Shown here one piece after another: positions 4,882 through 53,943 of a stretch of DNA of 64,000 nt. The notes below the pieces were generated by a model. The model worked only from the letters and a program-made list of their open reading frames with translations. It searched no databases and was not told where the DNA came from. A program made the position numbers and the translations under genes. The number at the start of each line of letters is the position of its first letter. The first letter of the stretch is position 1. The DNA lies in the NCBI RefSeq assembly GCF_002087085.1, contig NZ_MWQY01000012.1, forward strand, positions 1 to 64,000, given 5' to 3'.

Positions 4882-6276
4882 TTAAACACCTGAATTTACC
4901 TTGTTCCGACCTTCATGTTTTGCCCTGTACATTGCCTGATCCGCCCGGGAAAGGGCCGTGGTAAAATCTTCGTTGTCCCGCATCTCAACCACCCCGATTG
5001 TAACGGTGACAGAGCTTTCCTGCTCAATCCTGGCCCTGATTCTCTCGCTTATATCCAGAGCCCTCTGCATACCTGTGTGGACGACAAGAACAAACTCATC
5101 GCCGCCCCAGCGTACAATAAAGTCTTCATCCCGGATCTGGTTCTTGGCGAGACGGGAGACTTCCTTCAAAATAAAGTCTCCAGCCAGGTGGCCAAGATTG
5201 TCGTTCACCTCTTTAAAATGGTCGATATCCAGAGTCATCAGTGATATTTGACGCTGGTTGCGGTTACTTCTGCCGAAATACTCCTCCAGAAAATGCCGGT
5301 TATAGCTTTCCGTCAGGGAATCGGTATAACCCTTGATCGATAATTTCCTGCCAGCCCGGGAAACCAGAATATGATTGAGTGCCACAAGCAGCAGAGAAAA
5401 CACCATTCCCGCCGCAAAGGTTATAATACTCTGGCGCTGAAGGTCCTTATATGAATCTGTAATGTCGTGCTCGATAATAAGGTAGCGTTCTATTTCAGGG
5501 ATAAAACGGATATACAGCATCAGGGTAGATCCACCCTTCTCGGCCAGATAATGGGACCCATCGCCAAGGCTTTCTGCGGGGCCGTCAAGATTATATTCAT
5601 CAAAAAATGAGCGTCCCCGGTAATCAAGGGGAAGTCTCAGTTCCCCGTCCGGTTCAGCAAAAAGCATCCTGGTTTTTCTCTTTTCGCCTGCAATGTTCAG
5701 CGAAAAGCTGTCCAGGGAAATCCCGGTCCCGATAATTCCCGAAAGCTCCCCGGAGTCGCTTACAATCTTGCTGTCGAAAAAAAAGGAATAGAGTTCCACG
5801 GAGTTATCCGGATCATACAGACTGAATCGGTCCGTCTCAGGAGCGTCAAGAAAATCCTGCACCCAGCTGTCCCGGTCAGAGGAATAATCCAGCTCAAGGA
5901 TGTGACCGAAGGAATCGTAATACGTATCCGTTTCAAGAAAAACCAGACCCACGTTCTTGGCCCCGAGTTCGATCCTTTTCCTCCGTACAAAATCAAGAAT
6001 TCTGTCGGCATCCTCTCTGCCGTTCACACGGAACCGGGAAAGATCGACGGAATCGGCGATAAGGCGGTTTGCCAGGGAATATTTTTCTTTTACTCCATTA
6101 ATTTTTCCCACAACAGTATCGGCACAGGCGGGCAGGACCGATCCGGTAAGGTTTGCACTGAATACCCTCCGGGACATTCTGAAGTGGACGTAATTAATTA
6201 TAAAAAAACCGAAAAAAAAGATTATTGCCGAGAGTAAAATGATACGGTTTCGTTTATTTGCCTTTACATGCTGCAT
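4882..6276 (-). CDS. Membrane-bound sensor diguanylate cyclase
   Basis: Two TM segments flank a Cache-like periplasmic region; DIDHFKEVND...RWGGDEF...ADQAMYRAK. Confidence 0.9.
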   Translation of the reverse strand: MQHVKANKRNRIILLSAIIFFFGFFIINYVHFRMSRRVFSANLTGSVLPACADTVVGKINGVKEKYSLANRLIADSVDLSRFRVNGREDADRILDFVRRKRIELGAKNVGLVFLETDTYYDSFGHILELDYSSDRDSWVQDFLDAPETDRFSLYDPDNSVELYSFFFDSKIVSDSGELSGIIGTGISLDSFSLNIAGEKRKTRMLFAEPDGELRLPLDYRGRSFFDEYNLDGPAESLGDGSHYLAEKGGSTLMLYIRFIPEIERYLIIEHDITDSYKDLQRQSIITFAAGMVFSLLLVALNHILVSRAGRKLSIKGYTDSLTESYNRHFLEEYFGRSNRNQRQISLMTLDIDHFKEVNDNLGHLAGDFILKEVSRLAKNQIRDEDFIVRWGGDEFVLVVHTGMQRALDISERIRARIEQESSVTVTIGVVEMRDNEDFTTALSRADQAMYRAKHEGRNKVNSGV

Positions 6277-6306
6277 GTGTATTCAGGATCTCCGCCTCAG
6301 ATTAGA

Positions 6307-7098
6307 TCAGGACAGCAGCACCTCGTCATTCTCAAATTCCTTCTTCCTGATGGCATGAAACTTGTCCACAAGCTTTTCCACCGTCATATCCTGCTTTTCC
6401 CTGCCTTCGATGTCCAGGATTATTTCTCCTGCGTCCATCATCAGAAGCCGGTTTCCGTAGGCGATGGCGTTGGCCATGTTGTGGGTAATCATGATGGCGG
6501 TAAGCCTGTACTCTTCAATAAAGCGCTTGGTGAGTTCCAGGACCTTGGCGGCGTTCCTGGGGTCCAGGGCTGCAGTGTGTTCGTCCAGCAAAATCAGCGC
6601 CGGCCTTGACAGGACCATCATCAGCAGGGTAAGGGCCTGCCTCTGACCGCCGGAGAGCAGGTTTACGTTGTTCTTCAGCCGGGATTCAAGCCCCATATCC
6701 AGCACCTCGAGCTCCTTTCTGAACCTCTCCCTGAGCCGGCTGTTCAGGCTTATTCCGAGACCTTTGAAGCCCTTTTTGTGGCTGATGGTCATGTTGTCTT
6801 CCAGGCTCATGTTTCCCGCGGTTCCTAAAAGAGGATTCTGAAAAATGCGTCCGATATATTTGGCCCGTTTGTACTCGGGGGTTCTGGTAATATCCGCATC
6901 GTTGACGAAAATCTTCCCCTCCGTGGGAGCGTAGGTGCCGGCAATCAGATTGAAGAGAGTCGATTTACCCGCACCGTTGGAACCGATCACGGTAATAAAA
7001 TCCCCTTCTTTTACATTGAGGTTCACATTATGAATCGCCCTGGTTTCGTTGACAGTCCCTTCGTTGAATACCTTGGATACCTGTTCAAGCCTGATCAT
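6307..7098 (-). CDS. ABC transporter ATP-binding protein
   Basis: GSNGAGKS, LSGGQRQ, LLDEHTAALD. Confidence 0.9.
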   Translation of the reverse strand: MIRLEQVSKVFNEGTVNETRAIHNVNLNVKEGDFITVIGSNGAGKSTLFNLIAGTYAPTEGKIFVNDADITRTPEYKRAKYIGRIFQNPLLGTAGNMSLEDNMTISHKKGFKGLGISLNSRLRERFRKELEVLDMGLESRLKNNVNLLSGGQRQALTLLMMVLSRPALILLDEHTAALDPRNAAKVLELTKRFIEEYRLTAIMITHNMANAIAYGNRLLMMDAGEIILDIEGREKQDMTVEKLVDKFHAIRKKEFENDEVLLS

Positions 7099-30035: not shown

Positions 30036-30390
30036 TATACAGTCCATTTCTTTTCGAACGCTAAATATCCGCGCAGAGTGCGCAGAGGTACGCGATAACA
30101 TTACCCTTTTCCCTATCCTCTGCGGCCTCAGCGTGGTTTTTCTTATTCATTCACACATACCATGAATATACAGTCCATCTCTGTTCACACCCACAACATC
30201 CGGGCAGAGTACGCAGAGAGTTTTTGAACGATATTGCTCTCTTCCAGTCTCAGCGGCCTTTGCGTGGTTTTTCTTATTCATATACACATACCATGAGCAT
30301 ACAGTCCATTTCTGTCCAAATAAACAATGTGCGCGCAGAGTACGCAGAGGTCTGCACCGAAGAGCTTTCCTTTCCTCTACAGCCATTGCC
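30036..30390 (+). repeat. Tandem ~131-bp hairpin repeats, left block (3 units, last partial)
   Basis: YATACAGTCCAT at 30036, 30167, 30298; left arms at 30069, 30200, 30331. Confidence 0.9.
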
Positions 30391-30533
30391 TGCACCTCAA
30401 CTTACCAGTATCAAATATTTATAAAGCCATATCTGAGATTAACGGTAATAACAGTTTCAAATAAAGACGATGTTTATTCCAGGAATACTGCCATTCATGA
30501 AGCAATATCAGTTTGTCCTGGTTATATACAGTT

Positions 30534-30962
30534 ATGGAAGAACACAGCAAAATACCAATAATTGATCTTTCCCGCGGATACCAGCGACGGGAAGATATTT
30601 TAACGGAAAAAGTAATCGGAATAGCAATGAAGATCCACAGTTTCTTTGGGCCTGGACTTCTGGAATCATGTTACGAAGGTGCCCTCTGTTACGAACTGCT
30701 TCAGGAAGGCATCTCCTTTGAGCGTCAAAAAGAGATCTTCTGCGTATATAGAGGCGTAGATCTTGGAATAGCATACCGCGCCGACATCATTCTGGAAAAC
30801 CGGGTGGTAATTGAACTGAAAAGCTGTGAGCGGAACCATCCTGTTTTTTGCCGCCAGTTGCTGTCATATCTGAAACTGGCAAATATATCCGTTGGGCTGC
30901 TGATAAATTTTAATGTCCCGCGGTTAGTTGATGGCATTCAGAGAATCGTAAATAATTATTGA
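30534..30962 (+). CDS. GxxExxY protein (PD-(D/E)XK-like nuclease)
   Basis: GPGLLESCY, YRADIILENRVVIELKS, QLLSYL, GLLINF. Confidence 0.9.
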   Translation: MEEHSKIPIIDLSRGYQRREDILTEKVIGIAMKIHSFFGPGLLESCYEGALCYELLQEGISFERQKEIFCVYRGVDLGIAYRADIILENRVVIELKSCERNHPVFCRQLLSYLKLANISVGLLINFNVPRLVDGIQRIVNNY

Positions 30963-30974
30963 GTCAAAAGACAC

Positions 30975-31560
30975 GATTCAAACGACCAATATCCGTACAG
31001 TTACGCGGGGGTTTATACGATATTACCCTCTTCCGGTATCAGCGACCTCGGCATGGTTTCTTCATCGTTCACACATACCAGGTTCAAACAGCCTGTTTCT
31101 GTCCAATCGACAATGTCCGCGCAGAGTGCGCCGAGAACATTTTAGGGTATTGCTCTCTTATTTCCTCTGCGACATCAGCGTGGTTTTTATCGTTCACCCA
31201 TACCAGGATCAAACAGCCTGTTTCTGTCCAAACGACACTTACACCGCGTAGAGTACGCAGAGGTACGCGATGACATTAACCTTTTCCCTAGCCTCTGCGT
31301 CCTCAGCGTGGTTTCTTTATCGTTCACACATACCAGATTCAAACAACCTGTTTCTGTCCAAACGACAATGTCACCGCGTAGAGTACGCAGAGGTACGCGA
31401 TGAAATTACCCTTCTCCCTAGCCTCTGCGGCCTCAACATGGTTTTTCCTTATCGTTTCCACATACCATGGTCGAACAGGCTTTTCTGCACACACGCCCGA
31501 TATCCGCGCAGATTACCCAGAGGTGTACGCGTTGACGCGACCCTTTTCCTTCCCTCTCTT
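30975..31560 (+). repeat. Tandem ~124-132-bp hairpin repeats, right block (5 units)
   Basis: Left arms at 30993, 31117, 31244, 31374, 31504; CATACCA at 31074, 31199, 31329, 31461. Confidence 0.9.
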
Positions 31561-48454: not shown

Positions 48455-48625
48455 CCCTGAATTGTTTGCCAACAATATACTCACCGAATTATATCGGCAG
48501 TCTGTTTCGGCGGCGTCGACGGTATCGGCGGGGCGCAGCTACTCGGTTTACATGGGGGCACGACATTTTTCGTCCGGTGCCATCAGGTGAACTGTGTGCC
48601 CGGTGCGGCAAGTTTGAAAATAACA

Positions 48626-49144
48626 GTGAACCACGAAGACAAAGAACTGGAAATCCTGGAAAACATCTATCACTCCTCCTCATCCGTACGCCAGCGGGAC
48701 CTGGCGGAGATTGTCGGGCTCTCCCTGGGCATGACCAACGCGATTCTCAAGCGGCTTGTCAAGAAAGGCCTGCTGACGGTCAGAAAGGTCAATAACAGGA
48801 ATATCCGCTATGCTGTTTCCCCCGCCGGTGTGGAGGCCATTACCCGCAAAAGCTATCGCTACTTCAAGCGGACCATAAAAAACGTGGTCTTTTACAAGGA
48901 GTCCATCGAACGGCTTGTACAGGAAGGGAAAGAGAGCGGTTACGACGGCATCTTCCTCAAAGGCAGGAGTGATCTGGACTTCATTGTCGAGCACAGCTGT
49001 ATCTCCAACGGTCTCGACTACGTGCGGGACCCTGACAGCTACGTCGGCAGACTCTTCACCATCTACGCAGAAAGCTACATCCCGGACTCCGAAACCCGGG
49101 AACAGGGAGCCTCCTTCCTGCAGGAGCTGTTTGTAACACCCTAG
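48626..49144 (+). CDS. MarR-like winged-HTH regulator (EPS-associated type)
   Basis: QRDLAEIVGLSLGMTNAILKRLVKKG...YAVSPAG. Confidence 0.8.
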   Translation: MNHEDKELEILENIYHSSSSVRQRDLAEIVGLSLGMTNAILKRLVKKGLLTVRKVNNRNIRYAVSPAGVEAITRKSYRYFKRTIKNVVFYKESIERLVQEGKESGYDGIFLKGRSDLDFIVEHSCISNGLDYVRDPDSYVGRLFTIYAESYIPDSETREQGASFLQELFVTP

Positions 49145-49150
49145 GGTTTT

Positions 49151-49624
49151 GGAACAAGGATGTACAGGATAAGAAGGATATGAAGAAAAACACTCGTGAA
49201 AAAGTCTATGGAAACAGATCAGATTACAGAACTAATTATTGGTGCATCCTTTGAGGTAATGAACGAGCTTGGCGCCGGTTTTCTTGAGAAAGTATATGAA
49301 AATGCGCTGCTGGCTGAATTAAAAGAACACAGTATTTTCGCTGAACAGCAGAAAGAAATCTGTGTCTGGTACAAGAATAATAGAGTTGGTACATATCTTG
49401 CCGATCTTGTGGTTGAAAACTCTGTTATTGTTGAGTTAAAGGCTGTTAACAAGCTTGATGCAGTTCACTCTGCACAGCTTATCAACTACCTGCGGGCGTC
49501 TGATTTTGAAACAGGATTGCTGATTAATTTTGGAAATCCAAGGGTTGAAATTAAACGTCTGTTTAACAAGATTTCTTCGAGAGAATAAAGGATTTTATCT
49601 TGTTATCCTCCCCATCTTTGTTTC
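49151..49624. repeat. Imperfect inverted repeats flanking the second GxxExxY gene
   Basis: Left GGAACAAGGATGTACAGGATAAGAAGGAT (49151-49179); right ATCTTGTTATCCTCCCCATCTTTGTTTC (49597-49624). Confidence 0.65.
49208..49588 (+). CDS. GxxExxY protein (PD-(D/E)XK-like nuclease)
   Basis: GAGFLEKVY, YLADLVVENSVIVELKA, QLINYL, GLLINFG; AT-richer than its neighbours. Confidence 0.9.
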   Translation: METDQITELIIGASFEVMNELGAGFLEKVYENALLAELKEHSIFAEQQKEICVWYKNNRVGTYLADLVVENSVIVELKAVNKLDAVHSAQLINYLRASDFETGLLINFGNPRVEIKRLFNKISSRE

Positions 49625-49651
49625 AATATTTCTCGATTTCAAGGAGTTCCC

Positions 49652-50530
49652 GTGTCGCTTCCAGGTAATCAGCGTGTTAATCATCCGAGCATCAGCTTCG
49701 AGTTTTTCCCCCCAAAGACGGAGAAGGGTTTCGCTGCCTTAAAAAGGCGCATCGTCGATGATTTTGTTCCCTTGAAGCCCTCCTACGTTTCCATTACCTA
49801 CGGGGCCGGCGGCTCCACCCGGGAGCTTACCCGGGAGACAACCCTTGCAATTAACACAGAAACCCGGCTCCCGGTGGTATCCCACCTTACCTGCGTGGGG
49901 TCCTCTCGGAACGATATCGCCCAGGTTCTGGATGAGTACCAGGAGGCGGGTATCAGCAATATCCTGGCCCTGCGGGGGGATCCACCAAAGGGAAGCGATG
50001 AAAAGACCGGGGACTTTGCCTGGGCCGCGGAACTGGTGGCCTTCGTAAAGAAGGGCTGGCCCGGAATGAACATCGGGGTGGCGGGATTCCCCGAAGGTCA
50101 TCCGGCTACACCCAATCGCCTTGTGGAAATGGATCACCTGAAAGCCAAGGTCGATGCCGGAGCGGATTATATCTGTACCCAGCTCTTCTTTGATAACCGG
50201 GATTTTTTCGATTTTACCGAACGCTGCCGCATTGCGGGCATCAATGTGCCGGTTATCGCGGGAATCATGCCTGTGGTAAGCCGGGCAAACCTGCAGCGAA
50301 TGGCGGAACTCTCCCCGGGCACCCGCTTTCCCGCAGGCCTTTTAAAGAGCATTGCCAGGACCCGCAGCGACGAACAGGTGGAACGGGTGGGCATACACTG
50401 GGCCACCCAGCAGGTCATGGAGCTTCTGGCTGCGGATGTTGCTGGAATTCACCTCTACACCCTGAACCAGTCCCGGGCGGTCCTTGATATCTATCGTGCC
50501 CTGGGAATCGAAGATTCACGGCAGCTGTAA
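49652..50530 (+). CDS. metF: 5,10-methylenetetrahydrofolate reductase
   Basis: SFEFFPPK, TYGAGG, HLTC, LALRGDPP, TQLFFD. Confidence 0.93.
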   Translation: MSLPGNQRVNHPSISFEFFPPKTEKGFAALKRRIVDDFVPLKPSYVSITYGAGGSTRELTRETTLAINTETRLPVVSHLTCVGSSRNDIAQVLDEYQEAGISNILALRGDPPKGSDEKTGDFAWAAELVAFVKKGWPGMNIGVAGFPEGHPATPNRLVEMDHLKAKVDAGADYICTQLFFDNRDFFDFTERCRIAGINVPVIAGIMPVVSRANLQRMAELSPGTRFPAGLLKSIARTRSDEQVERVGIHWATQQVMELLAADVAGIHLYTLNQSRAVLDIYRALGIEDSRQL

Positions 50531-53794: not shown

Positions 53795-53943
53795 GGGTAC
53801 CTCTAAAAACTACTCTTTTCCCCATATCCTGTGTCGTCAAGATCTCCCGCGGTCCTCAACTCTTGTTACCACAAGAGTCTGCGGGCGCTACAAAATCTTT
53901 CCTCCTTGACTATGGTAAAAATACCACGTTTTTAGAGATGCCC
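53795..53943. mobile_element. MITE-like element (149 bp)
   Basis: Terminal IR GGGTACCTCTAAAAAC / GTTTTTAGAGATGCCC (13/16), internal hairpin ACTCTTGT..ACAAGAGT, TA-rich flanks, no ORF. Confidence 0.7.

Follow-up and report, generated by a model that had tools for sequence, protein, structure and literature searches.

A GxxExxY gene enclosed by inverted AGGAT-word arms, and the co-segregation of repeat word and protein lineage across phyla

We analyzed the first 64,000 nucleotides of contig NZ_MWQY01000012.1 (assembly GCF_002087085.1), a stretch referred to below as the window. A small AT-rich gene of the GxxExxY family lies there between a MarR/wHTH regulator gene and metF, enclosed by a pair of inverted arms (Table 1); its GC content is 38%, and those of the regulator and metF are 54% and 57%, respectively. 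The left arm starts 7 bp past the regulator stop codon, with AGGAT starting at 49157, 49166, and 49175, a 9-bp spacing. The ATC units of the right arm start at 49597, 49605, and 49614 in the assembly (spacings of 8 and 9); close strains have an extra C behind 49598, present in 4/4 DNA runs and one RNA run, that makes these spacings 9 and 9. The gene has a GTG start in the window and an ATG start in close strains, with an alternative ATG at 49208. The METD start at 49208-49219 resembles a fourth, decayed arm unit, and at loci L004, L007, L009, L014, and L018, the last arm unit apparently provides the start codon along with the initial, MNTD-like residues. Scans of the region for promoters and terminators gave chance-level signals only.

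Table 1. Positions in the window of the cassette, its neighbors, and related sites
Feature	Position	Strand	Remarks
MarR/wHTH regulator	48587..49144	+	Upstream context; profile matches
Left arm	49151..49179	+	11-nt head unit and two 9-nt units, every unit ending in AGGAT
GxxExxY / PDDEXK_3 gene	49196..49588	+	130 aa; profile matches, ORF
Right arm	49597..49624	-	Inverted copy of left arm; 28.5 bits with arm matrix
AAGGAG Shine-Dalgarno-like site of metF	49641..49646	+	Beyond the cassette; kept in alleles with or without it
metF (methylenetetrahydrofolate reductase)	49652..50530	+	Downstream context; profile matches
First GxxExxY paralogue	30513..30962	+	40% identical to the 49196 protein; relatives carry GAG words
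Empty metK-like/pfkB junction	47193..47248		Gene site of G001/G005, right after terminator-like hairpin

The best complementary stretch pairs 49149-49176 with 49599-49626 (28 nt, 79%). The arm pair reached a best ungapped score of 16, which none of 1000 dinucleotide shuffles of the 100-nt flanks attained (their highest score was 14), while under the stricter mismatch penalty of our locus survey it fell below the score-14 threshold; the pair is genuine but imperfect. With an arm matrix, the left arm scored 38.9 bits, and it is kept at the orthologous loci of two relatives, G004 and G002. In the predicted RNA fold of 49140-49660 the arms pair with each other (z -2.28), and 0/100 shuffles were equally good. 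A preliminary description of the sequence had reported the triple AGGAT, the reverse-complementary right flank, and the AT-rich gene between regulator and metF in the loop of one large hairpin; these observations were confirmed.

Pairing in this fold favors an RNA-level role, in which the arms of the operon transcript would form a stem comparable to that of rRNA intervening sequences and would either be processed out or regulate the gene and metF. RNA-library contigs (X16 and X17) cross each arm, at shallow depth and with DNA carry-over possible, and the cassette may be co-transcribed. However, across the 123 arm pairs of a survey that left out the window's own pair as below threshold, sense-strand G.U mismatches (108) matched A.C mismatches (109) in number. 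This lack of a strand bias suggests that the arms are more likely double-stranded DNA sites than a selected RNA stem. In addition, arms often occur singly or as direct repeats, Rfam gave no family match for the cassette, and no joint skipping it was present in four RNA runs (low depth, contigs only). These results speak against an RNA stem, though not decisively, and we consider it highly improbable.

The protein product matched only two profiles, TIGR04256 GxxExxY (146.4 bits; cut-off 35) and PF13366 PDDEXK_3 (144.3 bits; cut-off 22), making it a full member of the family. Among 80 sequences, G28, E31, and Y34 of the GxxExxY motif were invariant, as were the predicted catalytic residues E31, D70, and E80, with K82 conserved in at least 90%; all are present in the window protein. 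A structure model of the 130-aa single-domain protein (pLDDT 93) matched PD-(D/E)XK nucleases, including Cas4 SSO0001 (4ic1; Foldseek E 1.6e-4, VIA Z 8.0), the BpuSI nuclease domain (3s1s; Z 8.1), Hjc resolvase (1gef; Z 6.6), and lambda exonuclease. The small nucleases 4ic1, 3s1s, and 1gef have the fold and the catalytic motif in common with the protein, but their identity to it is only ~20% and none stands above the rest; the best fold match had a Z of 8.2, and transposases were absent among the top matches. A sequence search of the PDB returned two chance-level matches only and no solved relative, and we detected no strand-transfer domain in the 130 aa. Based on the alpha/beta core of the model and the E...D...ExK residues, we predict that the product is a PD-(D/E)XK nuclease.

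We searched 31 genomes with metF and found the regulator-metF order in eight of them, G000 (the window's genome) to G007, with the exceptions given below. The cassette was present in G000, G004, and G002, limited by the regulator stop on one side and the metF AAGGAG on the other. Insert-free junctions, which the preliminary description had suggested looking for, turned up in G001, G005, and G006, where the junction is short and arm-free (~30 bp in G001 and G005); a junction keeping arm sequence without the gene turned up in G003, where ~80 bp contain a recognizable right arm and a decayed left side. No target duplication was visible at the cassette, although the empty alleles compared are only distantly related (65-66% identity in the regulator). 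None of four DNA and four RNA contig sets contained a joint skipping the cassette, so a close empty allele was not found. Among the matches listed, the named locus closest to the cassette belongs to the genome of an uncultured member of the Spirochaetaceae, and its genes are in the same order.

The cassette gene of G004 has an in-frame stop (TAG), and in runs X5 and X7 the ends of a 149-bp MITE-like family are apparently inserted in the gene at 49228-49233; the gene is thus dispensable. One 149-bp copy of this MITE-like family, whose inverted ends are of the GGGCACCTCTAAAAAC type, lies at 53795-53943 of the window, and many more are present across the genome. The relative in run X7 (~88% alike) has a CACAGAG-type arm (a loose end) after the regulator, so different repeats have reused this junction. 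At the G007 junction (L085) there is an unrelated 1-kb insert with two small ORFs; the insert ends in a ~70-bp direct repeat of the regulator 3' end and so resembles the product of an integration event.

Genes of the 49196 protein lineage, with the same AGGAT arms, were found at two further sites in the genus. In G001 and G005, gene and arms lie between the terminator-like hairpin of a gene that we take to be metK-like and the pfkB stop, a junction that is empty and arm-free in G000, G002, G003, and G004. In G003, the gene lies inside long one-directional AGGAT-word arrays, 3' of a 398-aa gene; downstream of the G000 orthologue of the 398-aa gene, a solo right arm remains (C8:48684). The G003 arrays (L192 and L278; G003:C101 about 5400-6600) contain dozens of one-directional AGGAT units on both gene sides, and the orthologous site in G000 (C8:48440-48630) has a CGCAGAG word expansion instead.

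Each of the six genus genomes (G000-G005) has one gene of this lineage, compared to up to 18 matches per genome for the GxxExxY family overall. The six proteins group together (SH-aLRT 94 in a quick tree of 188/196 rows left after removal of short cores and duplicates; bootstrap 78 in a 10-row tree), and the gene tree repeats both well-supported host splits, (G000,G004),G002 and G001,G005, with G003 unplaced in gene and host trees alike. The gene is under purifying selection (dN/dS about 0.09-0.12), and its synonymous divergence (dS 0.37 against 0.51-0.55 for neighbors, and 0.77 against 0.87-1.54) was not lower than shared descent with those neighbors predicts, suggesting that it diverged along with them. 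We consider it most likely that the gene descends from the genus ancestor, has been maintained by selection, and relocated at least twice with its arms; an ancestral multi-copy state with differential loss is a possible alternative for the three sites.

A ~475-bp minimal mobile unit, as proposed in the preliminary description, agrees with these data in that the site changes within the genus. As an autonomous transposon, the arm-gene-arm unit would move whole and the gene-less hairpins would be its MITE-like derivatives, which also fits the clean limits from a stop codon to the next Shine-Dalgarno-like site or stop. In further support, an inverted pair scoring at least 14 surrounds the gene in 60/75, 58/78, and 5/38 loci, compared to 1/191 shuffled. 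However, a single gene of the lineage per genus genome, a gene tree that follows the host, synonymous divergence as expected from vertical descent, and the lack of a visible target duplication argue against such a unit, as does the far greater abundance of arms without a gene. Furthermore, the protein has no strand-transfer domain, only 8/72,556 plasmid records match the family, and 50,697 phage records gave no match to the 49196 protein. We find an autonomous transposon quite improbable.

The different junctions could also be accounted for by homing, in which hairpins that have the enzyme's own word but no gene would be cut by it, and repair from a filled copy, through arm homology, would put the gene in the loop. 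Of the three gene sites, two have gene-less AGGAT arms in a sister species (the degenerate pair at the regulator-metF junction of G003, and C8:48684 of G000), and no target duplication is visible. Remnant arms are explained equally well by gene loss, however, and the third site is arm-free in all four genomes where it is empty. Because each genome has about two dozen arm sites and only one of them contains the gene, we judge homing to be unlikely.

The first GxxExxY paralogue of the window, which had been described as another gene between inverted repeats, turned out to lie within a tandem array of ~120-bp CGCAGAG hairpins (window about 30070-31520), with no single enclosing inverted pair. The array is next to genes that are presumably gyrA-like and deaminase-like. 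Other GxxExxY matches in the same genome were 40-45% identical, and near-identical recent copies were absent. In G000 (C36, C40, and C23) and at genus loci L195-L214, other GxxExxY lineages are found without clear word arms at the gene, and these have a conserved GTCAAGG...CCTTGAC-type hairpin before the ribosome-binding site.

To compare repeat words between the two lineages, we used the best 78 of at least 569 candidate loci for the 49196 gene and the best 80 for the first paralogue, with one duplicate left in each set. The word classifier allowed lags of 8-10 bp, as a 9-bp lag alone left 70/78 loci unlabelled. Among the best 78 relatives of the 49196 gene, 66 had GAT words (61 CRCNGAT at period 10, 3 AGGAT/CAGGAT at period 9, and 2 others) and none had GAG, while among the best 80 relatives of the first paralogue, 70 had GAG words, at periods of 9 (39), 8 (27), or 10 (4), and one had GAT. 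The preliminary description was thus correct that the paralogues have distinct repeat words, but the 9-bp architecture that it had assigned to both gave way to period 10 in most GAT loci and to three periods in the GAG class.

The word signal was local, with labels in the near flanks of 65/75 relatives of the 49196 gene and 70/75 of the paralogue, compared to 3/63 and 0/41 in distal windows. These distal windows replaced a gene-interior control that gave matches in 9/78 and 32/80, probably from arms read into the aligned or extended frame. On the quick tree, 15 word labels required 39 changes, compared to a shuffled mean of 108.7. No word label was assigned at 17/38 genus and own-genome loci, and several paralogue lineages may lack such arms. 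Word and protein lineage co-segregate across phyla, which supports the protein-repeat co-evolution proposed earlier, although co-segregation is also expected from plain gene-flank linkage, and both locus sets, chosen by protein similarity, amount to two clades and not to many independent contrasts.

Positions 32, 36, and 97 of the protein are nearly fixed per word class: K, N, N for GAT; S, A, S for GAG at period 9; and S, E, T for GAG at period 8. Because the same positions double as clade markers, we put forward K32, N36, and N97 as candidate word-reading residues only. A comparison of two independent 9-bp CAGGAT groups (6 and 2 sequences) gave no convincing convergent residues.

The flank word also predicted the dispersed repeat family in 5/5 outside genomes, which were chosen by flank type. 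Two genomes with CAGGAT-9 flanks had 40 and 118 such doublets, compared to 2 and 11 CRCRGAT-10 doublets, and three genomes with CRCRGAT-10 flanks had 61, 71, and 149 such doublets, compared to 0 CAGGAT-9 in each. A GxxExxY match was present in 41/151 genomes of the class. Counted by hand for two patterns, at least three GAT-10 or GAG-9 doublets were present in 10/41 gene-positive genomes compared to 1/110 gene-negative genomes (Fisher p 8e-6, with kin not independent); 31/41 gene-positive genomes had fewer than three matches of these patterns, and a gene-negative genome that is 88% complete (G052) had four GAT-10 matches.

Solo AGGAT arms, for which a genome search had been suggested, proved to be numerous in the window's own genome. 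Triple A[AG]GAT at period 9 occurred 13 times, compared to 0-2 at other periods from 6 to 16, and the arm matrix gave 26 matches of at least 20 bits, compared to 0 in the reversed genome; the matrix was seeded with 10 own-genome arms and is circular for those 10. Of the 26 matches, just one pair encloses a GxxExxY gene and two (C13 and C75) resemble chance coding matches. Fifteen lie outside greedily called ORFs, which leave 9.4% of the genome uncovered, and some of the remaining arms are directly past real stop codons but within antisense ORFs. The arms are purine-rich tandem-word runs, not palindromes, and take the form of short hairpins, singles, or direct repeats, in many cases nested with arms that have a different word. 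At L254-L262 and in G000 (C4:64.2-64.7 kb and 85.7-87.3 kb), arms of two to three word families are nested within shared junctions, and they separate small cassettes of toxin-antitoxin-like type, which are not the same in close species.

Across the class, the three-unit AGGAT pattern was found in 6/6 genus genomes and 2/145 others. In G103, a genome without a GxxExxY match, the four pattern matches resemble coding tripeptide repeats and not arms. Within the genus, G001 and G005, with an intact gene, had 0 arm matches by one pattern and 2 and 3 by the other, two of which flank the gene in each, while G004, with a broken gene, had 14; this distribution argues against a simple rule by which the gene makes the arms. 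In G002, 13/15 AGGAT arm matches fall within ~450 kb of the 5-Mb genome (C1 796-1239 kb), around the gene at 1175 kb, a clustering that could stem from local spread or from plasticity of the region.

Arms also coincide with synteny breaks between G000 and G004/G002, and they bound other cargo, namely an AAA_14/DUF4143 ATPase, a DUF6036 nucleotidyltransferase, DUF4160/DUF2442, and PIN + HicB-like pairs. Such shared use favors a passive partner, with host recombination or an unlinked enzyme spreading the arms and the GxxExxY gene being one cargo among others; the gene would use the arms only as its own operator or would have a host role (repair or defense), and its link to one word would be due to descent. 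The scarcity of arms in G001 and G005 and purifying selection on a gene at a fixed site point the same way, as does the reading of paired word arms in Geobacter as IHF/HU-type sites (PMC2700814). However, the other cargo occurs at single sites, whereas GxxExxY genes are word-armed at most loci in many phyla; moreover, the genome-wide arm type equals the gene flank type in all five outside genomes, and the catalytic residues are conserved. We consider a passive role unlikely.

The explanation that we favor, at about even confidence for and against, is that the nuclease is a sequence-specific partner of the adjacent AGGAT arms and drives the copying of gene-less arms via host repair. In the scheme that we infer, the predicted nuclease would bind tandem words on DNA, possibly reading them through positions 32, 36, and 97, and putative cutting at the words would lead host repair to place copies of the gene-less arms and hairpins at other intergenic positions. 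The gene itself would be moved only rarely by such repair-driven copying, and cargo between arms would be gained or lost by arm-to-arm recombination. A broader version, which we offer tentatively and hold to be possible but doubtful, is that GxxExxY proteins are the engines of undescribed, cross-phylum intragenomic replicators, in which a 130-aa hydrolytic nuclease would read its own 8-10-bp word (positions 32, 36, and 97), cut, spread hairpins, relocate, and shuffle arm-bounded cassettes without a classical transposase. The repeat link gives this large family of unknown function a concrete candidate substrate and recognition code, and since close species differ at arm sites in synteny and in the gain or loss of cassettes, the arms could be a source of genome plasticity.

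The cassette belongs to a widespread gene-plus-repeat family that we did not find described as such. The GxxExxY family itself (TIGR04256 / PF13366), of which the 49196 protein is a full member, has been reported as being of unknown function with multiple transfers, in an account whose accessible text leaves repeats unmentioned (PMC3424549); elsewhere, the literature available to us contains an incidental mention beside a reverse transcriptase. A literature search, which extended to few subscription papers, returned no paper linking the family to repeats. In Geobacter, paired opposite-strand sites with three tandem repeats each (consensus TCTCCGTS[Y]) and variable spacing were read as possible IHF/HU-type regulator sites (PMC2700814). 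By our comparison, the reverse complement of this consensus fits the GAG word class of first-paralogue relatives; it is a different word from AGGAT, and the text at hand links no nuclease gene to the sites (PMC2700814). A link between repeats and GxxExxY proteins would explain these intergenic word-hairpins, noticed in Geobacter but assigned to IHF/HU.

MITEs and insertion sequences have terminal inverted ends, an intergenic position, and gene-less derivatives in common with the AGGAT cassette, judging from the portion of PMC3184786 available. In contrast to them, the cassette has no DDE, HUH, or serine transposase and no target duplication visible against the distant empty alleles, and its arms are periodic, with singles and nested arms common (PMC3184786). 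The GGGNATC repeats of Xanthomonas and Nostoc, which have a 7-bp G-quadruplex-forming word, likewise consist of short tandem words in intergenic DNA, frequently close to the stop codons of aligned genes; their abstract names no partner gene (PMC4692102).

The closest parallel in way of life is the REPIN-RAYT system, in which RAYT is a small, conserved, vertically inherited gene with cognate inverted repeats and is rare on plasmids, according to the portion of that report at hand (bioRxiv 10.1101/2021.07.10.451892). Flanks of cognate repeats, gene-less intergenic hairpins, and a repeat family of its own for each protein group are features of both (bioRxiv 10.1101/2021.07.10.451892), and the 49196 lineage is also single-copy, vertical, conserved, and rare on plasmids. 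As far as the accessible text goes, RAYTs are HUH/Y1 tyrosine transposases that act with short palindromic REPs and stay in one extragenic space, whereas the cassette has a predicted PD-(D/E)XK nuclease and tandem 8-10-bp words, and its gene, although fixed in place in G000, G002, and G004, changed junction within a genus. Because enzyme class and arm structure differ, the cassette is not a member of the REPIN-RAYT system. By analogy, the scheme that we favor would resemble a RAYT/REPIN pair in which a hydrolytic nuclease replaces the HUH tyrosine transposase, and if the enzyme does spread the arms, the GxxExxY cassette would have arrived independently at the RAYT/REPIN way of life, as a second solution.
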